NCBI GenBank assembly: GCA_049322255.1
Contig: JBMORE010000032.1
Span: forward strand, 1 to 32,020
Length of the DNA stretch: 32,020 nt
Direction of reading: 5' to 3'
From: Myxococcota bacterium
GTDB taxonomy: Bacteria; Myxococcota; Myxococcia; Myxococcales; Myxococcaceae
Shown here: positions 8,711 through 32,020 of the stretch, one piece after another
Position numbering within the stretch: the first letter of the stretch is position 1
Layout: every line of letters starts with the position of its first letter
Program-made: the position numbers and the translations under genes
Notes under the pieces: model-generated
What the model saw: only the letters and a program-made list of their open reading frames with translations
Told to the model about the DNA's origin: nothing
Database searches by the model: none

Positions 8711-8754
8711 AGGCACACCTTGCCGTCTTGGTCATGCTTAGCTAATTTTGGGGC

Positions 8755-8988
8755 ATGCGCCAGGTCAACGTTCACGAAGCCAAGACGCAGCTCTCGCGCC
8801 TGCTTGAAGTCGTCGAGGCGGGCGAGCGTGTGGTCATCGCGCGCGCCGGTCAACCGGTGGCCGTGCTGACGCCTTATAAGGTGGTGGTGCGCAAGCGGCG
8901 GCTGGGGCTGTTTGCCGGGCAGGCGCGCATTCACCCCGACTTCGACGAACTGCCACCAGACATCGCGTCGACGCTCGGTGTCACCTGA
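8755..8988 (+). CDS. Phd/YefM-family antitoxin
   Basis: MRQVNVHEAKTQLSRLLEVVEAGERVVIARAGQPVA; directly upstream of a PIN toxin. Confidence 0.92.
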   Translation: MRQVNVHEAKTQLSRLLEVVEAGERVVIARAGQPVAVLTPYKVVVRKRRLGLFAGQARIHPDFDELPPDIASTLGVT

Positions 8989-9378
8989 ATGAAGCTGTTG
9001 CTCGACACGCATGCGCTGCTGTGGAGCGCCAGCGACCCCGAAAATTTGTCAGCGGACGCACGAGAGATGCTCGAAGACGGCACCAACGAAGTGCTCGTCA
9101 GCACCGTGTCCGCGTGGGAAATCGCCATCAAGCAGTCGATTGGCAAGCTCGAGCTGCCCAAGCCCGCCGAGCAGTGGCTGCCCGAGGTGTTGCGGCGAAC
9201 GGGCTTCGAGGTCGCTGAACTGGGGCTTTCCGCCGCGCTGCGTGTCCGCGGCTTGCCGTGGCACCACCGCGATCCCTTCGATCGGTTGCTCATCGCTCAT
9301 GCCCTTGAAGACGGTTACACGTTGGTGACGCGCGACGGCGTCTTCGCAGACTACGGCGTGCCGGTGCTCGATGCCTGA
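8989..9378 (+). CDS. vapC: PIN-domain (VapC) toxin
   Basis: MKLLLDTHALLW, S.VSAWEIAIK, HRDPFDRLLIA, LVTRD. Confidence 0.93.
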   Translation: MKLLLDTHALLWSASDPENLSADAREMLEDGTNEVLVSTVSAWEIAIKQSIGKLELPKPAEQWLPEVLRRTGFEVAELGLSAALRVRGLPWHHRDPFDRLLIAHALEDGYTLVTRDGVFADYGVPVLDA

Positions 9379-16594: not shown

Positions 16595-16851
16595 TGCTCT
16601 GCTCGATACCGGGGCGTTGCTGGCNNNNNNNNNNNNNNNNNNNNNNNNNNNNNNNNNNNNNNNNNNNNNNNNNNNNNNNNNNNNNNNNNNNNNNNNNNNN
16701 NNNNNNNNNNNNNNNNNNNNNNNNGCGGGCATTCGGCCTGTTGGCCGGTGGGGACCCCAGAAGAGCCGAGAGGGCCAAGGAGACTTTGCGGAAGAAGCTG
16801 AAGGCCAAGCGTGCCGGGTAGTGCTCTGCTCGATACCGGGGCGTTGCTGGC
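16498..16851. other. scaffold gap (100 N, 16625-16724) flanked by an exact 127-bp duplication; likely assembly artefact
   Basis: 16498-16624 is identical to 16725-16851. Confidence 0.9.
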
Positions 16852-17242
16852 GCTTCTGGACCGGGATGATCGCTGGCATCAGCCGTGCGTGGCGGCGTTC
16901 GAGACGCTCCGGCTTCCGGTCATCACGACCATCGCCGTGCTCACCGAGTTGTTCCATCTATTGGGCGACGGGGCTCGCGAGCACTCGGCCGCCTGGCAGC
17001 TTTTGCGCTCGGGCGCGGTGAGGGTTGCGCCCATCTCCGACGAGGACCTGCCCGCGCTGGAAACGTTAATGATGCGCTACCGCGACCGGCCGATGGATTT
17101 GGCCGATGCCACTTTGGTGCACCTTGCCCAGCGGGAGTCGCTGTCGACCATCCTCACCGTCGACAACGACGACTTCGAGAGCTACCGCATCGGCGCGAAG
17201 CGACGCTTCCGCGTGCTGCCGGGCCGAATCGGCCGCTCGTAG
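16811..17242 (+). CDS. vapC: PIN-domain (VapC) toxin
   Basis: ALLDTGALLALLD.DD.WH, VLTE.FHLL, Y.D.PMDLADATLV, ILTVD..DF..YR. Confidence 0.9.
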   Translation: MPGSALLDTGALLALLDRDDRWHQPCVAAFETLRLPVITTIAVLTELFHLLGDGAREHSAAWQLLRSGAVRVAPISDEDLPALETLMMRYRDRPMDLADATLVHLAQRESLSTILTVDNDDFESYRIGAKRRFRVLPGRIGRS

Positions 17243-17287: not shown

Positions 17288-19564
17288 TCAGTTGATGGCG
17301 CCGTTGCTGGTGACTCCCGTCTTGATCTGAAGCACGTCGGCTTCGATCGTCACGCTGTCGGGCTGGCAGAGCGTGAAATCGGTAGGCGCAGCGCCAGTCA
17401 CCGACCCAGAAGCGACGGGGCGGCGCCAGTCATAGAAAAGCACGCGCCAGTGGCAGATCGGGCTGCCAGCGGCGGTGCAGGCCTGAGAGGTAGTCGAGTC
17501 AAGCAATCTACGCTCCATGCCGAACCCGTAGCCATCCAGCAAGTTGGTGTTGCTGATGGCGACGGTGCCCTTGGTCGCCGTGTGCCTGATGGCGAAGCTC
17601 GTGCCTGCAGCCTGCGGGCGGTTCAAGTTGAGGTCTCCAAACGTAGCGGAAAGGCCCACGCTGGTGCCCTTGCCCAAACCGCCAGTGCAAACCATTCCAC
17701 CGTCGGGCAGGGGGGAGCAGCACGGGGTGGAGAAGGGGTTGGGCTGAATGAAGCTGTTGGGCAGGCCGGTGGTGATGGGCCTGTCGCTGTATAGGATGCG
17801 GGTCTCCGTCCAGATGGTGGTGTTGTTGTCCCAAATGCCGTTGGGCGGAGTCCACTGATTATCTTGCGGAGCTTCGTCGATGTAGAGCTCCCCGGGGTCG
17901 AAGACGCCGTTGTCATTGGAGTCGACGAAGGGCTCGCCTTGGTCGATGAACCGCTCGTTCGCGTCACGGACTCCGTTCGTGTTGTCGTCGAAGTAGTGCT
18001 CTTCGCCTCGAACGAAGGCGATGACCGTCACCAGCGCATCGCGAGGGTTGCGGGTGAGCGCCCCAGCGGCAACAGACGGTTCGGCCAGGCGGGTGCTGGG
18101 CCACTGCGCCGGATTGGCGGGCAGTGGGGGAACGTCCACCGGGGGCCACACGCCGATGGTGCTGAACACGACGGTGCCTGTCCCCTCATCGGTGTTGTTT
18201 CCCGTGGGATCGAATTTCTTCGTCGCGATCGACTGTGGAATGGCGCCGGCTTCGGTTCGGAAGAAGACCGAGGTGCCGGTCCCGACTGGGTTGTTGCTTC
18301 GATCCACCAGCTTCACGTTGCAATTGACGTTGAATGCCAAAGGAGGCTGGGGACTGGCATAGGCGGCCACGTTGACAGGGCCACACTGAAGAGTGAAACC
18401 CTCGTTTGCGGGCTTCGCGCCTCGAATGCCGATGGTTTGACTGTCCGCTTCGACGAGCCCGGTGATGACCACGGCGTGAACGTTGATGGCACCGGTCCCC
18501 GTTCCCGCGGAGACGTTGACCGTCACGCGTCCCTGAGTATCGGTGATTCCAGTGGGTGTCACCGTGGCTCCGGCAGGAGGATTGGCGATGGAGAACCTCA
18601 CGCTGACTCCGGGGGCCGGTCGATTGCTCGAGTCCACCACTTCGAAAGTCACCTGGGCTTGCTCGTTGAAGCCAGAGCCTTTGATTCCCATGACGTTGCA
18701 GTCGATGCCGTTGCACTTTGTCGAAATCCAACGGATTTGCTGCACCCGCAAGACCTCCACCGAGACGCTGCTGGTGGCGCCGCTCGGGTCGTGCTTGCCG
18801 ACCAGAGTGGTCGTGCCTGGAACCCCCGTTTCGCGGAATTGAACCACCGCGGTACCCAAGGGCCCCGTGCGCTCGACGAGCGGGCTCATCGGGGTCGTTC
18901 CGCCGTCGAGGAAAGTAAAGCCGCCCAGGCCGCTCGTGAATTCGATGTCTTGGTCGGCGATGGGGCCTCCGTCGTTCGTGCGCAAAGTGGCAGTGACATT
19001 TGCGAAGTCGCCCACGTCGAGGAAGATTCGCTGCCGCGACGCGGACAGAGTGAGAACGATCCCGCCGTCGCCAGAGACGCCCGAGTCGCTCGTCACGGTG
19101 CCGCCTCCTCCATCGGTAGTGCCCCCGTCGAAGGCTTCGCCGCCGTCGCCGCCGTCTCCACCACCGCCGCCTCCGGTTCCCACGGTGAGGGAAGTAAAGT
19201 TGGTTACCCTGGTCCCCTCGGCGTCCCATTCGGCGGTAATTCGAACAGAACCGGAGCACCGGGAGTTGGCAGCAACGGCACAACTGAATTGCGTTGTTGC
19301 CTTGCCGGAGCCATCCAGCGTCGCGCTCGTGCTGGTGAACGAGCCCGCGGTCGCGCTGAAAGTGACGGTGCCGCTCCCGAGAGCGCCGCTGGCGGTGAGC
19401 GCCTCGACCGAGATGGTGGAGGTCTCGCCTTGATCGTCGATCTGCCTCGGAGAGGCGGAGATCGACAGCACGGCCAAGCCCGAAGGAGGCGGTGGGCTGC
19501 ACGCGACGTAGGCCCCGGCGAAGACTGCGGCCGCGACCACAGCGAAACGAGTCAGACGCAACAT
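17288..19564 (-). CDS. surface lipoprotein with invasin/Big_1-like Ig domains and DxNxNG Ca-binding-like repeats
   Basis: Start ATG 19564 (MLRLTRFAVVAAAVFAGAYVAC); V.D....P..GV.V.F and TD..G.V.V patterns; FDDNTNG/FVDSNDNG repeats; Gly/DGG linker. Confidence 0.7.
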   Translation of the reverse strand: MLRLTRFAVVAAAVFAGAYVACSPPPPSGLAVLSISASPRQIDDQGETSTISVEALTASGALGSGTVTFSATAGSFTSTSATLDGSGKATTQFSCAVAANSRCSGSVRITAEWDAEGTRVTNFTSLTVGTGGGGGGDGGDGGEAFDGGTTDGGGGTVTSDSGVSGDGGIVLTLSASRQRIFLDVGDFANVTATLRTNDGGPIADQDIEFTSGLGGFTFLDGGTTPMSPLVERTGPLGTAVVQFRETGVPGTTTLVGKHDPSGATSSVSVEVLRVQQIRWISTKCNGIDCNVMGIKGSGFNEQAQVTFEVVDSSNRPAPGVSVRFSIANPPAGATVTPTGITDTQGRVTVNVSAGTGTGAINVHAVVITGLVEADSQTIGIRGAKPANEGFTLQCGPVNVAAYASPQPPLAFNVNCNVKLVDRSNNPVGTGTSVFFRTEAGAIPQSIATKKFDPTGNNTDEGTGTVVFSTIGVWPPVDVPPLPANPAQWPSTRLAEPSVAAGALTRNPRDALVTVIAFVRGEEHYFDDNTNGVRDANERFIDQGEPFVDSNDNGVFDPGELYIDEAPQDNQWTPPNGIWDNNTTIWTETRILYSDRPITTGLPNSFIQPNPFSTPCCSPLPDGGMVCTGGLGKGTSVGLSATFGDLNLNRPQAAGTSFAIRHTATKGTVAISNTNLLDGYGFGMERRLLDSTTSQACTAAGSPICHWRVLFYDWRRPVASGSVTGAAPTDFTLCQPDSVTIEADVLQIKTGVTSNGAIN

Positions 19565-19762
19565 GGTTGCCCCTCTTTGCGAATTGGCGGGGCCGAGTAT
19601 TCCGGGTCGATCCCTCTGCGTCAAACCTCTCGCTTCTTGGAGCAACCGACGGCGGCGAAGCACCTCCGCCCGGCGCATTTCGGTTGCGCCTTCCTGCGGT
19701 GGCGCGTAGATCGCCCGCCCGGCGCATCGCGTCATCGTTCAACATCGAACAGGAGCGCGCTC

Positions 19763-20560
19763 GTGAAAATCCTGGTGACGGCCAAGCGGGTCGAGGACCC
19801 GGAGTCGAAAATCAAGGTCAAGCCCGACGGCTCGGGCATCGTGCAGGAAGGGCTGAAGTTCAAAATCAACCCCTTCGACGAAATCGCCGTCGAAGAGGCT
19901 TTACGCCTCACCACCAAGCACGGCGGCGAAGTGGTGGTGGTCTCCATCGGCGGCAAGGAGGTGCACGAGCAGTTGCGCCACGCGCTGGCGATGGGGGCGG
20001 CGCGCGCGGTGTGGGTGAACCACGAAGGGCCCATCGACCAGATGGGGGTGGCGCGCTTGCTCCAGAAGGTGGTGGAAAAGGAGAAGCCCGAGCTGGTCAT
20101 CCTGGGCAAGCAATCGATCGACGACGACCAGAACCAGGTAGGGCAGTACCTGGCCGAGTGGCTGAGCTGGGGACAGGCGACCTTCGCCTCCAAAGTGGAG
20201 TCGTTCGAATCGGACAACGAGAAAAACAAAGTGCCCGCGCTCGCGCTGAGCGCCGACGGCAAAGCGGTGCAGGTGGTGCGCGAGGTGGACGGCGGCCTGG
20301 CCACCCTGGAGTGCCAGCTGCCGGCGGTGGTCACCACCGACCTACGGCTCAACCTCCCGCGCTACGCTTCCCTGCCGGGCATCATGAAGGCCAAGCAAAA
20401 GCCGCTGGAGGAGCTCACTCCGGCCGGTCTGGGCGTCGACGTCACCCCCAAGCTCTCGGTGGTGAAGATGGCGGCGCCCCCTTCGCGCAAGGCGGGCATC
20501 AAAGTGAAAGATGTCGCCGAGCTGGTGGAGAAGCTCAAGAACGAGGCGAAGGTCATCTAG
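19763..20560 (+). CDS. etfB: electron transfer flavoprotein beta subunit
   Basis: INPFDEIAVEEALR, ALAMGA, GKQSIDDD, REVDGG, PRYASLPGIMKAK; AGGAG SD and GTG start. Confidence 0.95.
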   Translation: MKILVTAKRVEDPESKIKVKPDGSGIVQEGLKFKINPFDEIAVEEALRLTTKHGGEVVVVSIGGKEVHEQLRHALAMGAARAVWVNHEGPIDQMGVARLLQKVVEKEKPELVILGKQSIDDDQNQVGQYLAEWLSWGQATFASKVESFESDNEKNKVPALALSADGKAVQVVREVDGGLATLECQLPAVVTTDLRLNLPRYASLPGIMKAKQKPLEELTPAGLGVDVTPKLSVVKMAAPPSRKAGIKVKDVAELVEKLKNEAKVI

Positions 20561-20566
20561 CGCCCG

Positions 20567-20600
20567 CCCTCACCCTAACCCTCTCCCAGAGGGAGAGGGG
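20567..20600 (-). repeat. BoxC/triplex-type repeat, copy 6 (reverse orientation, etfB-etfA intergenic)
   Basis: CCCTCACCC-TAA-CCCTCTCCC-AGA-GGGAGAGGG(G). Confidence 0.9.
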
Positions 20601-20626
20601 ATCTTCCTGAGAGGAACCCACAGGTC

Positions 20627-21589
20627 ATGTCTATCGTTCTCATCGTCGCCGAGGCGCAGCCGGATGGAACCCTGCGCAAGGCCTCGCTCAACGCGCTCAC
20701 CGCCGGCAAGCAGCTGGCGGAGAAGGCGGGTGCCGAGCTGCACGCGGTCATTCTCGCCAAAGACGCCACCGCCCTTGCGGAAGCCCTCAAGGCGCACGGA
20801 CCCAAGGTGGTGCACGCGGCAAGCAGCGACGTCTTCACCCACTACCTCGCCGAAACTTTTGCTCCGGCGGTGGCCGAGCTGGCCAAGAGCCTCTCCGCCG
20901 ACTTCGTGGGCATGGCCTCCACCGCGGTGGGCAAGGACCTGATGCCTCGGGTGGCTGCCAAGCTCGAGGCGGCGATGGCTTCCGACGTGATGAAGCTCGA
21001 GGGCAGCGGCGCCGACATCACCTTCACCCGGCCGATGTGGGCGGGCAACGTCATCGCCGAGGTGAAGCTGGCCACGAAGGTGAAGGCCTTCAGCGTGCGG
21101 GTGACCGAGTTCGCTCCTGCGCCCAAGGGCGGTTCTGGCGAGGTGAAGGCGTTCAGCCCGCAGGTGGCGCCGGTGAAGACCCGCCACGTGGCCTTCCAAG
21201 AGGTGAAGAGCGCGCGGCCTCAGCTGACCGAGGCGCGGGTGGTGGTCGCTGGCGGCCGCGGCACCAAGGGAGACTTCAAGCCCATCGAGGCGCTCGCCGA
21301 CGAGCTCCAGGCGGCGGTAGGTGCCTCGCGCGCGGTGTGCGACGCCGGCTGGGTGCCCAACGACTTGCAGGTCGGTCAGACCGGCAAGGTCGTCGCCCCC
21401 GAGCTGTACATCGCCGCGGGCATCAGCGGCGCCATTCAGCACCTGGCGGGGATGAAGGGCTCGAGGGTCATCGTCGCCATCAACAAGGACCCCGAGGCGC
21501 CCATTTTCCAGGTGGCCGACTACGGGCTGGTGGCCGACCTGTTCAAGGCCTTGCCCGAGCTGCAAGCGGCAATCAAGGCAGCGAAGTAG
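20627..21589 (+). CDS. etfA: electron transfer flavoprotein alpha subunit
   Basis: [55 protein letters not shown]. Confidence 0.96.
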
Positions 21590-21727
21590 GGCGAGGACGT
21601 TGTAGACTCGCCGCCGTCGGTTTGTCCCAAGGCCGGTGAGGGTATCGAGGGCCGCGGTATGGAAAGCCCCGTCAACCGGGAATCGGCTGGCCGTGGCTGG
21701 TGGGAATCGGCTACAAGTCGCCAGCCG

Positions 21728-22024
21728 ATGGCTTTGGAGCTCAGCGAGGTGCCGAGGGTGCACCCCGAGACAGGGGTGCAGCGCGTCGGAGGGCGTCTGA
21801 TGGCCGCCAGCCCCGATGACCACTTGCACAGCTTCGAGGACGAGGAGGGGGCGGTCTCGGAGGTCGCCGAGCGCATCGTCGAGCTGTGCGACGGCTCGCG
21901 CAGCTTGGAGCAGATCGTCGACGTGTTGTGCGAGGAGTTCGAGGTCGAGCGCGGTGTGTGCACGACCGACACCCTCGCGTTTGTCGAGTTGTTGGTCGAA
22001 AGGCGCATTCTGGTCGTGGGCTGA
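21728..22024 (+). CDS. stand-alone PqqD-family protein / RiPP recognition element (RRE)
   Basis: VAERIVELCDGSRSLEQIVDVLCEEFEVERGVCTTDTLAFVELLVERRIL matches the PqqD helical pattern; start could also be 21659. Confidence 0.88.
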   Translation: MALELSEVPRVHPETGVQRVGGRLMAASPDDHLHSFEDEEGAVSEVAERIVELCDGSRSLEQIVDVLCEEFEVERGVCTTDTLAFVELLVERRILVVG

Positions 22025-22056
22025 AAAGTCCATTGACCGGGGAGAAGGTGGTTTCG

Positions 22057-25000
22057 ATGGTGCGAAGCGGATCGAAGCTGTGGTTGGGCGCGGTGACGGT
22101 GGTGATGGTCGTGGCCGGGTGCGATTGCACTCCGCGGCCGCCCGTCGAGCGCAGCCTCTTCTGTTCCTTCATCACTCCCACCGACGGGCAGCAGGTCGAT
22201 ACCACCGTCGACGTGAAGGTGCAGGTAAACGACCAGGACGGGAATCTGGTGGAGATCGACCGGGCGATTCTCGAGGTGCGGCTCGCCGGGGCAACCGACT
22301 TCACCCCCGGCCCGCAGCCAACCTTGGAGACCGGGGTGGCCACGTTCGCTGGTACCCAGCTCACCCCCGGGGTGAATCAGCTCAGGGTGACGGCCGGAGA
22401 GGTGGGCACGGTGCTGACCTGCAACCCGCGGAGCATCGCGGTGAACGTGGCGGCGCTGGGGCCCGAGATTCTGGCGGTCGAGTTCCAAGGTGACGTGAAC
22501 CAGGACGGGAAGCTGAACGCGGCGGAGCTGCCGAGCTTCCCGGTGGTGGCGATCGTGAGGACGCAGGCGATTGCGGACGGCGAGGAGATTGTCATCCGCG
22601 ATGCCTTCGGGGCCAAGGCCACCAACCCCGGCATCGTCTCGGGGAACCAGGCGACGGTGACGCTCGACCTTCTGGGGACCCAGCCGGAAGCGACGTACAC
22701 CCTCACCGCCGAGGCTCCGAACGTGACCGGCGTCCCCAGCCGGCAGGTGACGCTGGAGATCGACCAGGTGGCGCCGGGGGTGAGCATCTCCTGCCCTTCG
22801 AAGAATCTCCTCGGGCTGAGCGATGACGCGAACACCACGGTCGAGCCTTTCCAGCTGCGCGTGTGCGCGCAGGTGCCGAGCGACGTCAGCCAGGTTAGTT
22901 TCCAGCTGGGGACGCAGCTGTTCCCCTGTACTGGAACGTGCATCGTCTCCGGAGCGGCGGTGCACGTATTCGATGTGCAAAAGCCCGGCACCACCACTCC
23001 CCAGCTCAAGGTCACCGCATTCGACGCCGCCGGCAATACCGGCGAAGCGACCCAGCAGTTGACGCTCGACTTCGATCCACCGGTCATCAACGTCACCGCT
23101 CCGCTGGCCAGCGGAGGTCCGTACAATACCTTCAATCTGACGGTCACCGCGGCGGTCACTGGCGCGGAGGGGCAGCAGGTTGTCTTCTCGCGCGAGACCG
23201 GAGGCACCGAGGTTTCTTTGGGCGTTGCCCAGGTGAGCAATGGCACCGCCTCCATCGGCGCATCGTTCGTCAACGGGACGCACCGAGTCATCGGCAGAGT
23301 GGTGGATGTGGCGGGCAACCCGGCGGTGGACGACGAAACGGGCGTCGTCGTGAACAGCACGCAGTGCAGCGTGCTCTTCACCCGTCCAGCCACCAAGCCG
23401 GCCCTCTTGACGAAGAGCGATGACGAGGTGCTCACGACCCCCAACGACATCGACTACACGATTCGGGTAAACAGCGCGAATTGCCCCAACACCGCGGTGA
23501 CCTTGTTCCGCGACAACAACTTGGTATCCGCCGTCACGACCAACGGGAGCGGGAACGCCCAGTGGCTCGTCACCGTCCCGGCCGGCAGCTCCACCTACCG
23601 CGTGGACGTCTCCAATGGCGTCGGACAGCCACCAACCTCCGACACCGTCGTCATCACCGCCGATTTGAGTACGCCTTCCATCACCGCGCCGCGAAACAAC
23701 GAGCGCTTGAATGTCGCTCAAGATGGCCAGCGTCAGACGCCTGGGGTGCAGCGGTTGCTCACCTATTCCGCCAACGTCCCCACGGGTGGACGCGTAGCCA
23801 TCTGCAGCAATCAGACCCCCGTGGGAGCGACGGCCTGCCCCGATGGCGCATCTGGTTGGTGGGAGCTCGCCGCGAGCGCGCAGCCGAGCGAGCCGGCCTT
23901 CACCTTCCCCGAAGGGGTGTACGAGATCAAGCCGGTCGTGGTGGCGGTGGGAGGTGGCACGAACGTAGGTGGCGCGGTCCACCTCATCGTGGACAGCGTT
24001 CGGCCAACGGTGACCGCGGTGAGCATCGTGGGCGATCTCAACAACGACCGAAAGCTAAACAGCGCCGAGCTCGCGGCGATCGGCGGAGCGCCGCAGTTGA
24101 CGATCACCACCAGCGAGGAGGTGCAGTCGATCGTCGTTCGCGAGCAGGGAACGACCACCACGTTCAATACCGACACCAGCGGCACCTCAAACCGCACCCG
24201 CACGGTGACGCTGGACAAGAACCTCACCACCACCGAGCAGGATTACTCGCTCGAGATTGTGCTGAGCGATCTCAACTTCAACGCCAACGTGTTGGGAACG
24301 CCGACCACCTTCGACCCACTCGACGCGCTGGCGAAGCTGGCGCCGATTCGGATCGACCGCCAGGCCCCGGCTTGCAGCATCACGGCTCCAGCGAAGACGC
24401 AGCTTGGCGTCGCAGACGATGCGGACAGCGCTGCGGGCTATCAGCTGCGCGTCGGCGTCGCTACTTCTCTCGACGTGGCAAACGGCGTCGCCCTCACGTT
24501 GTCTGGAGCCGCGACACAGACAGCAACGGCTTCAGCCAGCGGCGGGAGTGCGACCCACGACTTCACCGTTTCCAGTACCGGCACCTTGGTCTACAACCTC
24601 GCGGCGACTTGCGTTGATGAAGCGGGCAACTCGACCACCGCAACGCCGCTGAACAACATCACCGTCGACAACGAGGTGCCCACCTGTTCGCTGACCTCGC
24701 CGTCTTCTGCCGGGGGCCCCTATGGCACCTTCTCCATCGCCACCAACGTCACTGTGGGAGGGCTGGGAACCGACGGACTGCCCGTGCGCATCTACAGCAA
24801 AGTCGGCGCCGCCGATGAACAGCAGGTGGGTACGCTCACCGTGTCCGGCGGGACGGCCTCCGGTCAAGTGACCTATCCCAATGGGACTCAGACCGTCCGT
24901 GCCGAGGCAGAAGACCTCGCCGGCAACAGGTGCACCAGTTCGCAAGCCAACGTGGTCGTCAATGGCGTGGGTTGTAGCTTGACCGTCTCCAAGCCGCAGA

Positions 25001-27366
25001 CCAACGGCTTCGTCAACAAGGCCGACGACACCAACTCGGCCACGACCACCACCGCTGAGTTCTCGGTCACCGGGAACAGCTCGAACTGCAACTCCGGCCA
25101 GGTGGTGAAGGTCTACCGCCTCGGGCCTCGTACCGAGATCGGCTCCAGCACCGTGGGGGCCACGGGTGCCTTCGCGGTGCCCATTGCCCTGGTCGAGGGG
25201 ACGCACCAGCTGGAAGTGGAGATCGACAACGGTGCAGGAGTGCTCAACTCCGATTTCCCTAGCAACGTCACTGTGGATGTAACGGATCCTACCGTTGGTA
25301 CGGTGACTCCCACCGGGGCGAGTCTCTTCTTCGTGGCCTCCACCAACGCGAATCTCGGCATCAACTCAGCCTACGTCGCCGATGGGACCCCGGGCGCTCC
25401 AGCCGACTTCAATGCGGTGGTGAATGATGTCGCCAACGCCGTCGGAGGAACCGTTCAAGTGACCTATGGCGGGACCGTCGTCGGCGGGCCGGCTTCGGTG
25501 ACCACCAGTCCGCAGAGTTTCACCATTCCAGTCACCCTGACACACAACACCAGCAACACCTTCGTGATCGAGGTGCGTGATCAGGCGGGTAACCTCGTTC
25601 GACCGACGAACGCGGCTGCACAAGTCGATGTCGTTGCTCCAGCGCCGCCCTCGGTGACCCAGACGGTGACGAACGCCCGTCGTGGGTTGGTGGGCCTGAC
25701 ATGGTCACCGGTCTACGACGACGGGAACGATTCCTCGTCGGGAGCGCACGCTGGGTACGATTTGCGGTGGACGACCAATGCTCTCAAAGATGCGACGGGA
25801 GGCGAAACAGCCGGGATGACCGCGGCCGACTATCTCGACTCCACTAAGGTGCAGACCGAATCGCTCATCGCCTGGTCGTCTTCGAGCACCAGCTACACGC
25901 TGACCATGCCGCCGCTGGCGACCTACTTCATCGCGGTGCGAGCGAAGGACGAGGTGGGAAACTATTCGGCGTTCGTTGCGCCAACGGCCCTGAATAACCG
26001 CGGCACTCAGCACACCTTCACCAACCCCATGGCGACGGCGAACCAGAGCTACGGCTCCACGTTGGCGGCGGGAGGCAGCCTGAACAACGATGCGATGGAC
26101 GACCTGGTGGTCGCGGCATCGAACGCGGCGCCAGCCGGCGCTGTGTACGTGTACTTTGGGGGCGCTCTCGTCTCGCAGACCACCTGCACCGCCCCCGCAT
26201 GCCAGAAGATCGAGCCTTACGACGCGGCGGCAGCCGGGGCGGGGAGCAGCTTCGGCGCGGATGTCTCGGTGGGCAACGTCGGCGCGGTGGGGACGGAAAA
26301 CAAGCCCGACCTTGTAGTCGGCGCGTCGGGCTTCAATTCTTCTCAAGGTCGGGTGTTCATCTTCTACGGCACTGCATCGGCGACCACGATGGACAGCGCC
26401 AACAGCTACGTCGAGCTTCGTGGAAATGCGGGGTCGAGCTTTGGAATTGCGGCTCGAGTCATCCCTGATCTCAACAACGACGGCCTGAGCGAGATCGCGA
26501 TCGCGGCGCCCGGTGAAAGCTCGAATCGCGGAAAGGTCTACATCTTCAATGGCCGCGCGATGAGCGCCTGGACCACCGTGCAAGATCCCATCACCATGCG
26601 ACCCTACGTGCCGGTGGCGTCGGCGAACTACGTCATCGAAGGACCCCTGCCAGCGGTGAGCGGCGGAAACCAGTTTGGCCGCGAGCGGGGAGGGTACGCA
26701 GCGCTGGGGGACCTCACCGGCGATGGAGTTCCGGACTTCACTGTCCCTGACTCCAAGGGCACGGTGAACAAGCTGTTCCTCTTTTCGGGGGCGGCAGTGA
26801 CGGCCAAGCCCGCTCCGCTGACTTTGACCACCGGTGTCTCTCCCACCGCAGCGGAAGAACAGCTGCAAACGCTCAGCTTTGGATCGACGGGCGCGGCCAC
26901 GCGGCTGTCCTTCGGCACGAGCGCTGTCGGAAATCTCAACGTGCTTGGCGGTGCCGCAAAGGATCTCGTCATCGCCCACGCCAACGACGCCACCGTGCAC
27001 ATATTCACCGATGGTATCTCGACGGGGTTCCCCTCCACGCCTGCCCTGACCATCCAGGGCACCATTCCATACCCCTTCGGCCGATGGGTGGTGGCAGGTG
27101 ACTTCAATCTCGATGGGAACAACGATATTGCTGTCGGTGAGGGTGCAGCGACGGGCTCGTCGGCGTGGGTGTTCTACAACCGTGGAGGAAGCTTTGATAC
27201 CAGTGCTGGCCGCGGATTTTGGACCTCGCGCGTGTTCGGTGGCTCGGGGGCGACGTCAATGGGCACCGGATTGGTTACAGGTGATTTCGACGGCGATACG
27301 CGGGTAGATCTCGCCTTTGCCGATAGCATTACAAGTACGGGACAGGTGATCGTATGGCACCCATGA
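22057..27366 (+). CDS. giant lipoprotein adhesin: multiple Ig-like repeats, FN3-like domain and C-terminal FG-GAP/integrin-alpha-like propeller
   Basis: GGAGAAGG SD; lipobox VAGC; repeated D.AGN strands; GDVNQDGKLN/GDLNNDRKLN; LTW..VYDDG...Y.LRW...YFIAVRAKDEVGN; seven FG-GAP-like motifs. Confidence 0.85.
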   Translation: MVRSGSKLWLGAVTVVMVVAGCDCTPRPPVERSLFCSFITPTDGQQVDTTVDVKVQVNDQDGNLVEIDRAILEVRLAGATDFTPGPQPTLETGVATFAGTQLTPGVNQLRVTAGEVGTVLTCNPRSIAVNVAALGPEILAVEFQGDVNQDGKLNAAELPSFPVVAIVRTQAIADGEEIVIRDAFGAKATNPGIVSGNQATVTLDLLGTQPEATYTLTAEAPNVTGVPSRQVTLEIDQVAPGVSISCPSKNLLGLSDDANTTVEPFQLRVCAQVPSDVSQVSFQLGTQLFPCTGTCIVSGAAVHVFDVQKPGTTTPQLKVTAFDAAGNTGEATQQLTLDFDPPVINVTAPLASGGPYNTFNLTVTAAVTGAEGQQVVFSRETGGTEVSLGVAQVSNGTASIGASFVNGTHRVIGRVVDVAGNPAVDDETGVVVNSTQCSVLFTRPATKPALLTKSDDEVLTTPNDIDYTIRVNSANCPNTAVTLFRDNNLVSAVTTNGSGNAQWLVTVPAGSSTYRVDVSNGVGQPPTSDTVVITADLSTPSITAPRNNERLNVAQDGQRQTPGVQRLLTYSANVPTGGRVAICSNQTPVGATACPDGASGWWELAASAQPSEPAFTFPEGVYEIKPVVVAVGGGTNVGGAVHLIVDSVRPTVTAVSIVGDLNNDRKLNSAELAAIGGAPQLTITTSEEVQSIVVREQGTTTTFNTDTSGTSNRTRTVTLDKNLTTTEQDYSLEIVLSDLNFNANVLGTPTTFDPLDALAKLAPIRIDRQAPACSITAPAKTQLGVADDADSAAGYQLRVGVATSLDVANGVALTLSGAATQTATASASGGSATHDFTVSSTGTLVYNLAATCVDEAGNSTTATPLNNITVDNEVPTCSLTSPSSAGGPYGTFSIATNVTVGGLGTDGLPVRIYSKVGAADEQQVGTLTVSGGTASGQVTYPNGTQTVRAEAEDLAGNRCTSSQANVVVNGVGCSLTVSKPQTNGFVNKADDTNSATTTTAEFSVTGNSSNCNSGQVVKVYRLGPRTEIGSSTVGATGAFAVPIALVEGTHQLEVEIDNGAGVLNSDFPSNVTVDVTDPTVGTVTPTGASLFFVASTNANLGINSAYVADGTPGAPADFNAVVNDVANAVGGTVQVTYGGTVVGGPASVTTSPQSFTIPVTLTHNTSNTFVIEVRDQAGNLVRPTNAAAQVDVVAPAPPSVTQTVTNARRGLVGLTWSPVYDDGNDSSSGAHAGYDLRWTTNALKDATGGETAGMTAADYLDSTKVQTESLIAWSSSSTSYTLTMPPLATYFIAVRAKDEVGNYSAFVAPTALNNRGTQHTFTNPMATANQSYGSTLAAGGSLNNDAMDDLVVAASNAAPAGAVYVYFGGALVSQTTCTAPACQKIEPYDAAAAGAGSSFGADVSVGNVGAVGTENKPDLVVGASGFNSSQGRVFIFYGTASATTMDSANSYVELRGNAGSSFGIAARVIPDLNNDGLSEIAIAAPGESSNRGKVYIFNGRAMSAWTTVQDPITMRPYVPVASANYVIEGPLPAVSGGNQFGRERGGYAALGDLTGDGVPDFTVPDSKGTVNKLFLFSGAAVTAKPAPLTLTTGVSPTAAEEQLQTLSFGSTGAATRLSFGTSAVGNLNVLGGAAKDLVIAHANDATVHIFTDGISTGFPSTPALTIQGTIPYPFGRWVVAGDFNLDGNNDIAVGEGAATGSSAWVFYNRGGSFDTSAGRGFWTSRVFGGSGATSMGTGLVTGDFDGDTRVDLAFADSITSTGQVIVWHP

Positions 27367-27527
27367 GCAAGCCTCCTCCGAAGGTCAAACGCCGCTACCT
27401 TGCACCGAGTCTTCGTTCCCAGCAGATCGTAGCCCCCAATCTCCTCACGGTGACTTGTTCGGGGGCAACGCCGCTTCTCTGTCCGGATGGGGAGACGTGC
27501 GTAGCGGATCTCGGCGACTGCCCGTAG
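27363..27527 (+). CDS. putative RiPP precursor peptide (54 aa; YxxPxL leader, 4-Cys C-terminal core)
   Basis: Hand translation: MSKPPPKVKRRYLAPSLRSQQIVAPNLLTVTCSGATPLLCPDGETCVADLGDCP*; ATGA overlap with the adhesin stop; shorter than any ORF in the supplied track. Confidence 0.75.
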   Translation: MSKPPPKVKRRYLAPSLRSQQIVAPNLLTVTCSGATPLLCPDGETCVADLGDCP

Positions 27528-27541
27528 CAAGCGGTCTTGGA

Positions 27542-28285
27542 GTGGAAGTTGACCGCCAAATTCTCGAGCTCAGCTCGGCGCGATGCCATTGGCAGTCGTT
27601 TGCCAGCGTTGGAAGCCGAGACGAGCCCAGCGTCTTCGTACGCAGGACGAACAGGCTCGAGGAGAGCGAGAAACTTCCCCTGATGGGTTCGCTGGCACCT
27701 TGGGGCTTCTACACGCTCCAGGGAGACGAGCTGCTCTGCCAAATTCCAGATGACCCGTTCGCTGCGGAGTCGGTGCTGCGCATCGCCTACCATGTCGCGA
27801 CGGTACGTGCAGGAGGCTTGCTCGTTCACGCCTCAGCCATTGCGTTTGATAAGTGCGCTGTTGCTGCAGTTGGACCGAGCGGAGCGGGGAAGTCGACCTT
27901 GGCGAACCTATGCGCCTCCGCCGAAGGAAAGGGAAAGCTGCTCACCGATGAAATAGTGCAGCTTTTCCCTGAGGGGTTGTGCGCAGGCACGCCGTTTCGC
28001 TCCAACCATGAGAATGTGGGCTCGCCGGGGCTCTATCGCCTCACGTCACTGCTCCTGCTCGAGAAGGGCTCCCAAGAGCGTATCGACCCGGTCGCTTCGC
28101 ATCGAGGAATGCCCGCACTCCTCTCCCAGGTGTTCCGGTCGGAGGCGCTCGAGCTTTCCAACGCCGAGGTGCTTCGGCGGCTGGCCGATACCGTCGAAGC
28201 GTCCGGTTTGCACCGCCTGACCTTTCGCAATGATGCGGCTGTGGGACCTTTCCTGCGCCAGTGGGTGGCCACCTGTGGGAGTTAG
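27542..28285 (+). CDS. HPr-kinase-related P-loop kinase (lasso-peptide-kinase/ScmC-like)
   Basis: GGLLVHASAI...GPSGAGKSTL, LLTDE, GTPF; start uncertain (GTG 27542 chosen, frame open from 27455). Confidence 0.75.
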   Translation: MEVDRQILELSSARCHWQSFASVGSRDEPSVFVRRTNRLEESEKLPLMGSLAPWGFYTLQGDELLCQIPDDPFAAESVLRIAYHVATVRAGGLLVHASAIAFDKCAVAAVGPSGAGKSTLANLCASAEGKGKLLTDEIVQLFPEGLCAGTPFRSNHENVGSPGLYRLTSLLLLEKGSQERIDPVASHRGMPALLSQVFRSEALELSNAEVLRRLADTVEASGLHRLTFRNDAAVGPFLRQWVATCGS

Positions 28286-28985
28286 GGTCGCCGACTTCCT
28301 CGAGCAGCTGCCACTGGGTGCAACGATGTGGTTGTCGACACGGGGCACGAGCATGGCGCCCCTTCTGCGGAGCAGAGACGCCCTTCGCGTGCAAAGGTGC
28401 ATCGAGGACGAGCTTCATCGGGGCGACATCGCCATCTTGCGCCGGGAAGATGGCGCTCTCCTGGCCCACATCGTGACGGCGACCCACCCCCTTCGCACCT
28501 CGTCCTTCAGCGGCACCCCCGACGCTCCGGGGCTTCGGAGCCTGGGCAAGGCGATGGCCGTGCGGCGGAAGGGGAAGGAGCTGCCACTGCCTGCTTCGGC
28601 GCGGGTGCCCCTCTACGCGGCACACCGGGTGTGGGCCGGTGCGGCGAAGTCACCGCTGGCGCGCGCGACGCTGCGCCTTTTGCTCGAGTCCACCGCACGC
28701 TTTCGCAGGTGGCAGCTCTCCCCGCTGAGCGTTCGCTTACTTTGCGAGGCCGACCTGCCCACGCTGGCGGACTACGCTCCGGCCGGGCTGGCCGCGACGG
28801 AGGAGGAGCTCGCTCGACTCCTTCGCCCGCCCCGGCGAGCGGCGGGAGCCTTCTTGGGGAACAGGCTGGTGGGTCTCGGGTTGGCGGAGGGCGCCGCGGT
28901 ACGGCACCTCTCGACGACTTTGTGGGCCCGCGCGGTGGGGCTGGAGGCCGAGCTGCTCGAGCTTCTCGGCGCGCGCGATGGGTGA
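28275..28985 (+). CDS. S24/S26-family serine peptidase with degenerate GNAT-like C-terminal region
   Basis: RGTSMAPLL..RD...GDIAIL...LAHIV; tail VRLLCEADL...GAFLGNRLVG...LWARAVGLEAELL; GTG 28275 overlaps the kinase stop. Confidence 0.72.
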   Translation: MGVRVADFLEQLPLGATMWLSTRGTSMAPLLRSRDALRVQRCIEDELHRGDIAILRREDGALLAHIVTATHPLRTSSFSGTPDAPGLRSLGKAMAVRRKGKELPLPASARVPLYAAHRVWAGAAKSPLARATLRLLLESTARFRRWQLSPLSVRLLCEADLPTLADYAPAGLAATEEELARLLRPPRRAAGAFLGNRLVGLGLAEGAAVRHLSTTLWARAVGLEAELLELLGARDG

Positions 28986-29895
28986 GGAACTTTCCCGCGG
29001 CCCCGGCCTCAAGGCCGACGCGCTCTTGGTGCTCATCACCGCCTTCTGGGGCGTCACCTTCGTGGTGGTGAAGGACGCGCTGAACGACGCCGACGCTTTC
29101 AGCTTCCTGGCCATGCGTTTCGCGGTGGGCGGCATCGCCGCTTCGGCCATCGCGCGGCGCACCCTTTTCGACCGTGGCGCGTGGCACGCCGGGCTTTTGC
29201 TCGGGGTGCTCCTCTTCGTCGGGTATGCGTTTCAGACCTTCGGGCTCTCCCTCACCACGCCCTCCCGCTCGGCCTTCCTCACCGGGCTCGCGGTGGTGCT
29301 GGTGCCCTTCGCCGCGCTGCTCGTCTTTCGGCGAATGCCGAAGGCGCCGGCGCTCCTGGGGGTTGCGCTGGCGGCGGGAGGGCTGTACCTGCTCACCGGC
29401 GGCCTTTCCGGCGGTGGCACGCGCCTGGGCGATGGGCTGACGGTGGGCTGCGCCATCGCCTTCTGCTTTCACATCGTTCTCACCGAGCGCTTCGCTCCCG
29501 GTCGGCCGGTGGTGGCGATGGTCGCCTGGCAGCTTTGGGTCACCGCGCTCCTCTCCGCGCTCTGCCTACCTTTCTCCCAGGCTCGCATCCATTGGACGGG
29601 CTCGCTCCTCTCGGCCATTCTCGCCTGCGGCATTTTTGCCTCCGCCCTCGCCATCTCTTTGCAGACTTGGGCCCAACGGCGCACCACCGCGGTGCGCGCG
29701 GCGCTCATCTTCGCGCTCGAGCCGGTGTTTGCAGCGCTCCTCTCCGTCGGCTTGGGGAGGGAAACGCTCGGGCTGGTCGAGGGGATGGGAGGCGTGCTCA
29801 TTGTGCTGGGAGTGGTTTGCGCGGAGGTGGGTGGGGTTTTGGTGAGGAGAGTACGCCCCTCATCCCCGCCCCTCTCCCAGGGGGAGAGGGTGTAA
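28978..29895 (+). CDS. EamA/DMT family transporter
   Basis: WGVTFVVVKDAL, FQTFGL..TTPS.SAFLTGL.VV.VP, QTWAQ, ALIFALEPVFA; about 10 TM segments. Confidence 0.92.
   Translation: MGEELSRGPGLKADALLVLITAFWGVTFVVVKDALNDADAFSFLAMRFAVGGIAASAIARRTLFDRGAWHAGLLLGVLLFVGYAFQTFGLSLTTPSRSAFLTGLAVVLVPFAALLVFRRMPKAPALLGVALAAGGLYLLTGGLSGGGTRLGDGLTVGCAIAFCFHIVLTERFAPGRPVVAMVAWQLWVTALLSALCLPFSQARIHWTGSLLSAILACGIFASALAISLQTWAQRRTTAVRAALIFALEPVFAALLSVGLGRETLGLVEGMGGVLIVLGVVCAEVGGVLVRRVRPSSPPLSQGERV
29857..29890 (-). repeat. BoxC/triplex-type repeat, copy 7, forming the last codons of the EamA gene
   Basis: CCCTCATCC-CCGC-CCCTCTCCC-AGG-GGGAGAGGG; translated as ..PSSPPLSQGERV*. Confidence 0.8.
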
Positions 29896-30867
29896 ATGCC
29901 GGTTGAGCTGCGCAAAGGTGGGTTGCACCTGTCGGGCACGGCGCTCTCCTTGGACGCCACCCGCAAGGTGCCGCTCTCCTTCGTTTCGCACGCGCACTCC
30001 GACCACATCGCTCGTCACGAGCGTGTCATCGCCACCCGGCCCACCGTCGAGCTGATGACGCATCGTCTCGGCCAGCTCCCGGCGGCGCTGCCGGCGCCCT
30101 ACCGCCGGCCCTTTGAAATCGGGCCGCTCCTTCTCGAGCTCTTCCCCGCGGGGCACATTCTCGGCTCAGCTCAGTTGCGCATCACCCGCGCCGACGGCCA
30201 CCGTGTCGTCTACACCGGTGACTTGAATATGGAGTCCTCGCTCACCGCCGAGGCTGCCGAAGTGGTCGAGGGCGACACCCTCATCCTCGAGTCGACCTTC
30301 GGGCACCCGAAGTTCGTCTTTCCGCCGCGCGAGCAAGTCTTTGCCGACGTCGAAGCATGGGTACTCAAGAAGCTGGAAGAGAAAGTCGCGCCCATTCTCC
30401 TCGGCTACCCGCTGGGCAAGAGCCAGGAAATCATCAAGTACCTCGGTGACCGAGGCTTTTCCTTGCGCGCCCACCCGAACATCTTCGCGGTGAGCCAGCT
30501 CTACCGGTCACTCGGAGTGGAGCTGAAGGTGCGGCGCTTCGACGGCGAGTTGGGCGAGGGGGAGGTGGGGGTTTTCCCGCCCTTCGGCCGCTCGCAGGCG
30601 GTCAAGCGCCTCTGGCCGCGCGCCACCGCGGTCCTCACCGGCTGGGCGCTGGAGCCATGGGCCGCTAGCCGCTACGGCGCCGACGTGGCTTTCCCCCTCT
30701 CCGACCACGCCGACTTTCCCTCCCTCGTTCGCTACGCCAAGGCCACCGGCGCCGAGGAGGTCATCACCCACCACGGTTTTGCAACCGAGCTGGCAGAAGA
30801 GCTTCGGCGAGAAGGGGTGTTCGCTCGCCCGGTGGGAAAACCGGTGCAGATGGAGATGGGGTTTTAA
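29896..30867 (+). CDS. metallo-beta-lactamase/beta-CASP nuclease, DNA-ligase-associated exonuclease-like
   Basis: SHAHSDH, PAGHILGSA, YTGD, ESTFG, Y.LGKSQE, LSDHADF, HG. Confidence 0.85.
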   Translation: MPVELRKGGLHLSGTALSLDATRKVPLSFVSHAHSDHIARHERVIATRPTVELMTHRLGQLPAALPAPYRRPFEIGPLLLELFPAGHILGSAQLRITRADGHRVVYTGDLNMESSLTAEAAEVVEGDTLILESTFGHPKFVFPPREQVFADVEAWVLKKLEEKVAPILLGYPLGKSQEIIKYLGDRGFSLRAHPNIFAVSQLYRSLGVELKVRRFDGELGEGEVGVFPPFGRSQAVKRLWPRATAVLTGWALEPWAASRYGADVAFPLSDHADFPSLVRYAKATGAEEVITHHGFATELAEELRREGVFARPVGKPVQMEMGF

Positions 30868-31901
30868 TGAAAACTGCGCTGTCGCTTTCGATTCTTATTC
30901 TTGGCTGTGCTGGGCCACGCAAGACTTCGCCCGCGCCAGCTACTACTCAAGGTCCCAACATCTGCTCCACTGCGCAGCGTCTGGCCGCGGGAGGTTCGTT
31001 TGCGAGGGCGGCCGACGGCGTCGCCATCTGGTACAAGCTCGCCGGCCGGAAAGGCGCTCCGACCATCGCGTATCTCCACGGTGGACCTGGCTACAACGCC
31101 TTCGCCTTTGAGCAGAGTAGTGGCCGGCTGCTGGAGAGTCGCTTCCAGGTACTCTACATCGACCAACGCGGGTGCGGTCGGTCCGGCTTCCACGGATCGC
31201 CAAGCCAGTATGGGATGTCCAAGACTGTCGATGATATCGAGCAAATCCGCGCGAGCATCGGAGTCGGTCGCTTGATCCTCCTCGGGCACTCCTTCGGTGG
31301 ATTGGTCGCCGCCGAATACGCCCGTCGCTACCCGGCACATGTATCTGCCATCGTGATGATTGACATTGCTCCCGACGTCCACCGAGCTCTGGAACATCAA
31401 GTTGCAACCATCGATGCCGTGGCCGAGACCAAGTTCCCAGTCGAAGCCAGCAGGATTCACGCGATCGCCCAGTCGGACGGGAAACCGTTCGAGAAGCTGT
31501 TCCGCCTTTACGAGCTACTTGGCCGTGTCCCAATCCAGCGGCACCTGCACTATGCCGCCCCCCAAGCCCAGGAGAAAATGGAGCGAGTCGATGGTGCGTC
31601 AGGGATCATGGGCTGCACCTCGTCGGAGGTCCTCAGTGCCTTTGAGCGGGAAGGATACCTCCTTGGACCAAGGCCCTCGGTCGCGGCGCGAATCACCGTT
31701 CCGACCCTCCTCATTGCGGGTCGTTCGAGTCACGTCATTGGAGCGGACAACATTCGATTCGCTGCGGAAATCTGGGGAGCACGTGTTCAATGGCTCGAGA
31801 CTGGGCACTTCGTCTATTTCGAGCGGCCTGACGAGTTCGCGAACGCCGTCGAGAGTTTCGTTTGGGGAACAGGAATCCTCGAGCAAGCAAGTCCTCGCTG
31901 A
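30867..31901 (+). CDS. alpha/beta hydrolase, proline iminopeptidase (S33)-like, probable lipoprotein
   Basis: Lipobox-like ILGC; HGGPG, DQRGCGRS, GHSFGG nucleophile elbow, GH..YFE.P. Confidence 0.85.
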   Translation: MKTALSLSILILGCAGPRKTSPAPATTQGPNICSTAQRLAAGGSFARAADGVAIWYKLAGRKGAPTIAYLHGGPGYNAFAFEQSSGRLLESRFQVLYIDQRGCGRSGFHGSPSQYGMSKTVDDIEQIRASIGVGRLILLGHSFGGLVAAEYARRYPAHVSAIVMIDIAPDVHRALEHQVATIDAVAETKFPVEASRIHAIAQSDGKPFEKLFRLYELLGRVPIQRHLHYAAPQAQEKMERVDGASGIMGCTSSEVLSAFEREGYLLGPRPSVAARITVPTLLIAGRSSHVIGADNIRFAAEIWGARVQWLETGHFVYFERPDEFANAVESFVWGTGILEQASPR

Positions 31902-32020
31902 ATTCAAGCGCGCGGCGCTCTAGCGAAAACGTGTGCGGCACAGGCCGACTTGGTGGTGAAGCCGGCATCTTGTTCCAAGCGCTCTATCATGGGGCAAAAG
32001 TGCCCATGGATACGCACTAG

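Follow-up and report, generated by a model that had tools for sequence, protein, structure and literature searches.

Linear polyphosphorylated peptide (LPP) clusters of Bacillota, as described for LppA, B, K, S, D and N of Paenibacillus alginolyticus (Popov et al., Nat Commun 2026, PMC13381572), combine a precursor with a discrete recognition element for peptides that are ribosomally synthesized and then modified post-translationally (RiPP recognition element, RRE; i.e., LppB), an HprK-like kinase (LppK), a signal-peptidase-I-like protease (LppS), a nucleoside triphosphate (NTP) transferase (LppN) and an exporter (LppD). Here, we compare these clusters with a locus of five genes (positions 21728–28985, plus strand) on a 32,020-nucleotide stretch of DNA from a Myxococcaceae bacterium (GenBank assembly GCA_049322255.1, contig JBMORE010000032.1, positions 1 to 32,020; hereafter referred to as the window). 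The five genes encode, in this order, an RRE, a giant lipoprotein, a small peptide, a kinase and a peptidase, and with a probability of about 0.5 we regard their locus as a myxobacterial relative of the LPP-type RiPP pathway, built around a giant surface lipoprotein.

According to that report (PMC13381572), the LPP leader carries the motif YxxPxVLxHQxIxFETxxS, for which Y/W alternatives are described and of which the final Ser corresponds to Ser3 of the core. It is this Ser3 to which LppK adds several phosphates. LppS, an archaeal-type enzyme with S29, H68 and D93 as its catalytic residues, requires the RRE for cleavage and shows a preference for the precursor in its phosphorylated form. For LPP, the binding of the leader by the RRE, RRE-dependent cleavage and polyphosphorylation have all been demonstrated in Bacillota, to which phylum the LPP were called restricted (PMC13381572).

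Set against this published description, the window locus matches four of the six LPP parts (i.e., the RRE, the leader type, the kinase fold and the Ser/His/Asp peptidase). In both systems a discrete RRE stands with a Y/WxxP leader that is followed by a variable C-terminus, with an HprK-like kinase and, where lasso systems have a B2 protease, with a peptidase carrying a Ser/His/Asp set (in the window locus a putative leader peptidase), while a cyclase is present in neither. Both also have a Ser or Thr at a fixed distance past the leader Tyr, and both show an association with cell-surface loci. The window locus differs from the LPP clusters in belonging to Myxococcota, in having a soluble, S24-like peptidase that is fused to a GNAT domain in most orthologues, in having short, Cys-paired peptide tails, and in the obligate coupling of its peptide gene to the gene of the giant lipoprotein. 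A preliminary description of the locus, made from the sequence of the window, had proposed a minimal pathway of recognition, phosphorylation and cleavage that was yet to be described. The logic of this proposal appears right, but since four of the six LPP parts match, and since the same four functions have been demonstrated as LPP in Bacillota (PMC13381572), the pathway is no longer undescribed in kind. What is new here is an LPP-like pathway outside Bacillota (i.e., in Myxococcaceae) that lacks LppN and LppD and is obligately coupled to a giant lipoprotein gene. A literature search for this combination in myxobacteria found nothing, although the supplements of the LPP report may list homologues from outside Bacillota.

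The precursor peptide and its coupling to a giant lipoprotein gene

The five genes are packed tightly, with a gap of 32 nt between the RRE and giant lipoprotein genes, a gap of 14 nt between the small open reading frame (ORF) and the kinase gene, and an overlap of 11 nt between the kinase and peptidase genes, so that the coordinates confirm the co-oriented, compact arrangement first described. Since this arrangement recurs across genera, it is far beyond chance. Neither a cyclase nor a radical SAM family was found among the 27 window proteins scanned, in line with what had been noted from the sequence earlier.

The first gene of the locus (21728–22024, plus strand) encodes a discrete RRE of the PqqD family of 98 aa, which matches Pfam PqqD with an E-value of 1.5e-12 and a score of 48.1 bits (cut-off 23.4). 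Its nearest solved relative is the lasso RRE TbiB1 (E 0.003), and the crystal chains from the LPP system were absent from its matches in a profile search of solved-structure sequences. A search of 61 related genomes with the kinase led to 19 orthologous loci, which were fetched. An RRE orthologue was present upstream of the giant gene in 17 out of 17 loci that extend far enough.

The small ORF (27354–27527, plus strand) encodes the precursor peptide, of either 57 aa (from the ATG at 27354) or 54 aa (from the ATG at 27363). Although it matches no family, homologous ORFs are present in 19 out of 19 loci, and the small ORF is a real gene. Its product contains the leader motif [Y/W]xxPx[V/L/I] (at 27396–27413) and a C-terminal tail with four Cys residues, and the homologous ORFs support its being a precursor with a conserved RRE-type leader and a variable Cys-rich tail. 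Both candidate start codons lie in one frame; the ATG at 27363 overlaps the giant gene as ATGA, and that at 27354 overlaps it by 13 nt. From the aligned sequences the latter start appears more likely, because in nine loci the ATG falls within the Val-Trp codons that close the giant gene, with a purine-rich stretch before it. The frame originally assigned to the peptide therefore stands, while the length of 54 aa assigned with it is the less likely one.

For alignment of the peptides (A4; 19 sequences), the window peptide was combined with those from the 18 giant-bearing loci among the 19 fetched kinase loci. These peptides have in common a conserved basic stretch, the [Y/W]xxPx[V/L/I] motif and about 10 more semi-conserved leader positions, followed by a tail that varies between genera. 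The invariant columns are Met1, Pro18 and two Cys residues. The first residue of the motif is Tyr in 14 and Trp in 5 of the peptides, and no column of the RRE alignment tracks this distinction between Trp-leader and Tyr-leader loci. Within a genus the tail is stable, being identical in four out of five species of genus g30 and in two out of two of genus g34. By hand count, the number of tail Cys residues is even (i.e., 2, 4, 6 or 8) in every Cys-bearing peptide, two peptides having one additional Cys within the leader. The first tail Cys usually adjoins a Ser or Thr. Finally, a Ser or Thr stands 19 residues past the motif Tyr in 11 of these 19 window-type peptides, and no more than two residues from that position in most of the others.

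The gene that precedes the small ORF (22057–27366, plus strand) encodes a giant surface lipoprotein of 1769 aa, with a lipoprotein-type signal ending in the lipobox Cys22 (22120–22122), Ig-like repeats and a C-terminal FG-GAP beta-propeller (approximately 25924–27363). In integrins, blades of this kind bind calcium. The preliminary description of this product as an Ig/FG-GAP lipoprotein was well founded for the lipoprotein signal and for the FG-GAP part (FG-GAP E 4.9e-19 over three stretches, FG-GAP_3 E 1.4e-13), and less so for the Ig-like part, since the Ig-like families (Big_13, HYR, Big_3_3) give weak matches only.

Orthologues of the giant gene are present in 18 of the 19 kinase loci, and their C-terminal 521 aa show 36–45% identity across 18 genomes. 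In all of the 19 peptide-bearing loci the peptide start lies between –26 and +11 nt from the stop of the giant gene, and the two genes overlap in 12 of them. Three further orthologues of the giant gene, located on other contigs, are likewise all trailed by such a small ORF. Moreover, in the three fully fetched loci in which the kinase gene stands by itself, behind panD and 1.6–3.7 kb downstream, the RRE, giant and peptide genes have remained together. As judged from these gene boundaries, the peptide gene is obligately linked to that of the giant lipoprotein through a translational coupling that has been conserved, and the tie between the two that had been proposed for the window alone is conserved in 19 out of 19 loci.

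This coupling suggests that the peptide and the giant protein work together, whereby the part of ligand, cofactor or decoration first proposed for the peptide product is a tentative one. Equally tentatively, the matured peptide could be a dedicated small partner (i.e., a subunit, plug or ligand) of the giant surface propeller protein rather than a free natural product, and the RRE, giant protein, peptide and HprK-like kinase could constitute a general Myxococcota module that is re-used with FG-GAP propellers, with PQQ-like propellers and, where radical SAM enzymes are added, with C25 proteases. An analogy, and no more than that, is offered by QhpC of quinohemoprotein amine dehydrogenase, a small, leader-bearing, Cys-rich peptide that is matured to become a subunit of a larger enzyme; its maturation involves a radical SAM enzyme and a subtilisin-like protease, unlike the window locus. 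Prediction of a complex between the C-terminal 521 aa of the giant protein (alignment A5) and the peptide (alignment A4) scored 0.00 in two runs, which speaks neither for nor against binding.

Alternatively, an LPP-like pathway could yield a free exported peptide (i.e., a signal, an antibiotic or a matrix component), with the giant lipoprotein being merely co-expressed, within a shared cell-surface programme, and in no physical partnership with it. The LPP clusters of Bacillota indeed lie in capsule loci without a known protein partner (PMC13381572), and the myxobacterial tails are conserved within genera and different between them, as in ordinary RiPP families. We nevertheless consider such a free peptide rather unlikely, since start and stop codons overlap or nearly overlap in 19 out of 19 loci despite a giant-protein identity of as little as 36–45%, which is tighter than co-regulation needs, and since the order of RRE, giant, peptide and kinase genes recurs with three unrelated giants (FG-GAP, PQQ-like propeller and, with radical SAM, Peptidase_C25; see below).

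Kinase, peptidase and the distribution of the gene set

The fourth gene of the locus (27542–28285, plus strand, GTG start) encodes an HprK-like P-loop kinase of 247 aa with its Walker A motif at 27872–27898. An AlphaFold2 model of this kinase (pLDDT 94) was compared with solved structures via Foldseek, which returned phosphoenolpyruvate carboxykinases (PEPCK; E 2.8e-6) and the HprK/P structures 1ko7, 1kkl, 2qmh, 1jb1 and 1knx (E 3e-4 to 1e-3). PEPCK and HprK/P share a fold, and it is this fold that the kinase has according to its model. An alignment of 19 kinase sequences contains 21 invariant columns.

The fifth gene (28275–28985, plus strand, GTG start with an alternative ATG at 28230) encodes a soluble Ser/His/Asp peptidase of the S24/S26 clan, followed by a truncated GNAT remnant. 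Candidate catalytic residues are Ser26 (28350–28352; within a GxSMxP-like motif), His65 (28467–28469) and Asp83 (28521–28523). Across 14 peptidase orthologues (alignment A3), no variation is seen at His65, Asp83, Gly24 or Pro29, whereas Ser26 is kept in 13 sequences and replaced by Cys in the other, and there is no conserved Lys. In a structural model (pLDDT 91), the first approximately 105 residues matched the C-domains of UmuD, UmuD', LexA and lambda cI via Foldseek, and the remainder matched GNAT acetyltransferases. The matches to these clan SF (S24/S26) folds had E-values of 7e-4 to 4e-3 and a probability of 1.00. Calling the enzyme an S26 peptidase, as had been done at first, is thus imprecise: its closest folds are those of the S24 proteins UmuD' and LexA, a His replaces the usual Lys, an Asp is conserved, and a GNAT remnant is attached. 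The Ser-to-His spacing of 39 equals that between S29 and H68 reported for LppS, even though the closest folds are UmuD' and LexA.

Most orthologues of this peptidase are approximately 320 aa long and contain a full GNAT domain (Acetyltransf_1 E 2.7e-12). The window copy covers profile positions 6–251 of 315, the C-terminal half of its GNAT domain having been lost, and the next gene (EamA) starts in its last codons. Because the window copy is cut short in this way, acetylation is unlikely in the window genome.

Several observations connect the peptidase with the kinase. In one genome (G009; L022:9966–11606, equivalent to L083:1306–3117) kinase and peptidase form one open frame of approximately 550–600 aa, which is the sole such case among the 30 best loci. 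Within the family, all 21 genomes with a kinase match of E ≤ 1e-20 also carry the peptidase. In all five genomes in which the peptidase is not adjacent, a peptidase-only orthologue of approximately 140 aa is present elsewhere.

The distribution of the gene set was further examined by searching 301 genomes of the phylum with a kinase profile, with 114 genomes of the window's family sampled besides the window's own. Strong kinase matches (E ≤ 1.4e-56) occurred in 41 genomes, all of them in the window's family, and weaker, paralogue-level matches were spread across many families. At the 30 best loci, the peptide and peptidase genes flank the kinase gene in 18, whereas in 12 the kinase is on its own over 1.5 kb to each side. 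The combination of an RRE, an FG-GAP protein of 1481–2346 aa and the kinase is met again in four loci (L101–L104) that belong to other families or to a different order-level group; two of them include an S24-like gene, and a matching peptide ORF was seen in two out of four (L102 and L103). No radical SAM gene was present among the ORFs scanned in these four loci. In other classes (L095, L096 and L099), kinase homologues occur with a PqqD gene and adjoin Peptidase_C25 proteins of 1161–1206 aa, with a radical SAM gene in L095 and L096 (with SPASM in L096) and an S24-like peptidase in L095.

Several observations weigh against assigning the window locus to an LPP-type pathway. Its likeness to LPP is one of component types, fold and residue spacing with the published description (PMC13381572). 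Neither LppN nor the MsbA-like LppD has a counterpart in the window locus, and export is the weakest step of the proposed pathway because no dedicated exporter is present in the locus and the peptide is without a signal peptide. The sequence matches of the kinase are weak (HprK_rel_A with E 1.7e-5 and 24 bits against a cut-off of 200, and HprK_rel_B with E 8.3e-4, far below cut-off), and its profile search of solved-structure sequences returned P-loop matches only. The peptidase, likewise, matches Peptidase_S24 below cut-off (E 0.0031) and signal-peptidase models at E 0.042, and its profile search of solved-structure sequences returned GNAT matches only. A Ser or Thr at a fixed position is kept in just the 11 of 19 window-type peptides mentioned above, and the peptide that follows the giant-gene orthologue of genome G002, in which no kinase was found, is without Cys. 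Much of the co-occurrence, moreover, comes from within one family with common housekeeping synteny (genes for electron-transfer flavoprotein (ETF), EamA and MBL), and since this family shares its flanking synteny, the related genomes are not independent and the counts overstate their independence. Finally, full-length peptidase-GNAT is kept in 21 out of 21 genomes of genus g13, whereas only weak kinase matches, at the level of paralogues, were obtained for the 18 genomes of g13 that the phylum search covered. The one g13 locus inspected (L110; G012:C2:29000–47000) reads ETF-beta, ETF-alpha, peptidase-GNAT, EamA and MBL; the RRE, giant, peptide and kinase genes are missing from it, and no giant-gene orthologue was found in that genome (G012).

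Because the full-length gene is kept in these 21 genomes without the kinase, membership of the peptidase in the system, which its overlap with the kinase gene and its co-retention in 21 out of 21 genomes support, is less certain than it had seemed from the window. The g13 pattern therefore means that the peptidase may have another or an additional job, and that the minimal mobile block may consist of four genes, with peptidase-GNAT in a further role.

The same pattern bears on the possibility that the five genes are neighbours by inherited synteny and not one system, with the kinase and peptidase-GNAT acting on other substrates. We hold this to be improbable. It is true that the block is embedded among conserved housekeeping genes (ETF-beta, ETF-alpha, EamA and MBL), but the component set also recurs in other families and classes amid different flanking contexts. 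Similarly, the retention of peptidase-GNAT in kinase-less g13, where L110 misses the other genes, is countered by its retention in all 21 kinase-bearing genomes, by the 11-nt overlap of kinase and peptidase genes and by their single frame in G009. Synteny would also suit the 12 of the 30 best loci in which the kinase has no such neighbours within 1.5 kb. Against this reading, an RRE and a YxxP-type leader are a matched pair in every known precedent.

Second gene set, candidate partners elsewhere in the genome and flanking genes

The window genome contains a second set of related genes on contig C182 (L040:5457–10206), between hisS and miaA and without a peptidase in the locus. This set comprises a PqqD gene (L040 5457–5741), a gene for a PQQ-like propeller protein of 709 aa (L040 6157–8286), a small ORF with a YxxP motif and two Cys residues (within L040 8301–8522) and a paralogous HprK-like kinase gene (L040 8510–9307) that overlaps the end of the small ORF. 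In four fetched genomes of the same family, this type 2 set has a propeller protein of the 1035-aa class, with a small S24-like gene lying upstream of the RRE gene, and in a fifth genome it has a different gene order. A Ser or Thr is located 18 residues past the Tyr in six out of six type-2 peptides, preceded by a small-x-small site of the kind cut by signal peptidases, and this spacing equals that in the LPP motif as published. Only a single peptidase domain of this family is present in the window genome (i.e., that of the window), which, by inference, may serve both the window peptide and the peptide of the second set.

Other cassettes that unite an HprK-related protein, a PqqD-like protein and a small peptide, like the window locus, are SynChlorMet (ScmC/D/E/F) and those of the GeoRSP type (TIGR04249–04251, TIGR04302/04303). 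These are defined by comparative genomics only and are built on radical SAM/SPASM enzymes, whereas the window locus is without one. The kinase of the related cassette L096 matches ScmC at E 3.8e-9, whereas the window kinase falls below the cut-offs of all those models.

Partner enzymes were also sought across the whole window genome (99.6% complete), with results that agree with the absence of partners noted earlier for the window. The sole radical SAM/SPASM protein of the genome is encoded on contig C166 (L058:6855–8159), where its gene adjoins those of a 369-aa protein of no known family and of tryptophan 2,3-dioxygenase. It is closest to the nif11-class (TIGR04103, 444 bits) and GDL-motif (371 bits) maturases, in both cases below cut-off. 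Belonging to another subfamily and standing in an unrelated context, this enzyme was rejected as a radical SAM partner of the window locus. A LanC-like protein was not found, in a search that was also negative in control genomes and hence says little. NTP_transf_5, the family of the LPP and lasso nucleotidyltransferases, is represented on other contigs only. Two of its genes lie adjacent to each other in a polysaccharide locus on contig C104 (L059:6795–9310), amid genes for a UDP-glucose dehydrogenase, an epimerase and a GT4 glycosyltransferase.

These searches also bear on whether the pathway is incomplete at the window locus and cross-linking is contributed from elsewhere, either by the sole SPASM maturase or by phosphate elimination and Cys addition to give thioethers. 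We lend this little credence. Related cassettes in other classes (L095–L097) do carry radical SAM/SPASM genes beside kinase, RRE and S24-like peptidase genes, but the ORFs scanned in L101–L104 include no such gene, and the one SPASM maturase that the genome has to offer is of the nif11/GDL-peptide type, unlike that of those cassettes, and lies in an unrelated context. The Ser or Thr that usually stands beside the first tail Cys would suit thioether formation, but the even Cys count fits disulfides equally.

Phosphorylated lasso clusters (i.e., the paeninodin type and Bsf of Bradymonas), reportedly also combine an RRE and a Y/WxxP leader with an HprK-like kinase, whose target is a Ser of the peptide. 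In addition they depend on a B2 protease and on a macrolactam cyclase, neither of which was found in the window genome. Despite the lasso-like leader motif and discrete RRE, with TbiB1 as its best solved relative, a lasso cluster with its cyclase and B2 protease elsewhere in the genome is rejected as very improbable, given that no Transglut_core3 (B2) match was obtained and that the Asn_synthase family was matched just five times, in each case over a short part of the profile (no match better than E 3.6e-7, and none spanning more than approximately 115 of 354 positions).

Tight packing on the plus strand extends past the peptidase gene. The start of a gene for an EamA-family (DMT) transporter (28978–29895, plus strand; EamA E 3e-35) lies 8 nt before the peptidase stop, and it is followed by an MBL-fold gene with a 0-nt gap and an alpha/beta-hydrolase gene with a 1-nt overlap. 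Upstream, the five-gene block is preceded by the two ETF genes (ETF-beta and ETF-alpha). The EamA gene follows the block in 13 of 19 related loci and, as far as scanned, was not seen beside the giant FG-GAP loci of other families. The EamA, MBL and hydrolase genes were set aside as members of the system, because they form a family-wide backbone that is present even where the block is deleted and that was unseen beside the FG-GAP loci of other families as scanned. The EamA transporter is therefore probably a neighbour outside the system.

Within the window, the GC content falls to 0.60 at 27001–28000, across the peptide and kinase genes, compared with 0.65–0.69 on either side. A scan of 19500–32020 for promoters and terminators remained at chance level (one promoter versus 1.0 expected, and 10 terminators versus 9.0 expected). 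Just upstream of the ETF genes, the minus strand (17288–19738) contains an 816-aa ORF with a Big_1 Ig-like domain; a long plus-strand ORF overlapping it looks spurious except for its ETF-beta end. Farther upstream lie a Phd/YefM antitoxin and PIN toxin pair (8746–9378) and a second, solitary PIN-domain gene (16802–17242).

Proposed pathway and its implications

Having observed the gene anatomy, its conservation, the folds and the conserved catalytic residues at the window locus, we infer the chemical steps, export and lipoprotein partnership of an LPP-type pathway as follows. Because its start codon lies inside or just past the last codons of the giant gene, the peptide would be translated in step with the lipoprotein, with a stoichiometry presumably set by this coupling. 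By the precedent of LPP and lasso systems, the PqqD-type RRE would then bind the [Y/W]xxPx[V/L/I] leader. The HprK-like kinase would phosphorylate the Ser or Thr near the junction of leader and tail, as suggested by LppK and by the conserved spacing, and the soluble Ser/His/Asp peptidase would cut the leader off the RRE-presented precursor, as suggested by LppS and by the conserved Ser, His and Asp. More speculatively, the acidic, Cys-paired tail may be exported and disulfide-bonded, and may at the cell surface act in concert with the lipoprotein that carries the FG-GAP propeller.

If the peptide is indeed a partner of the giant protein, a surface complex would here be assembled or tuned through RiPP chemistry, for instance if a phosphorylated, disulfide-locked loop were presented to calcium-binding blades. 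For the function of LPP-type peptides the myxobacterial variant offers a handle, since the coupling of its peptide gene to a giant lipoprotein gene predicts both a partner and a compartment, which are open to direct testing. A paralogous version seemingly occurs in genera with complete genomes of 9–10 Mb, some of which are likely cultivable and genetically tractable. Should the link prove real, a family so far regarded as restricted to Bacillota would extend into another phylum, and RiPP biology would come to include, besides free antibiotics and signals, matured peptides that act as partners of surface proteins.

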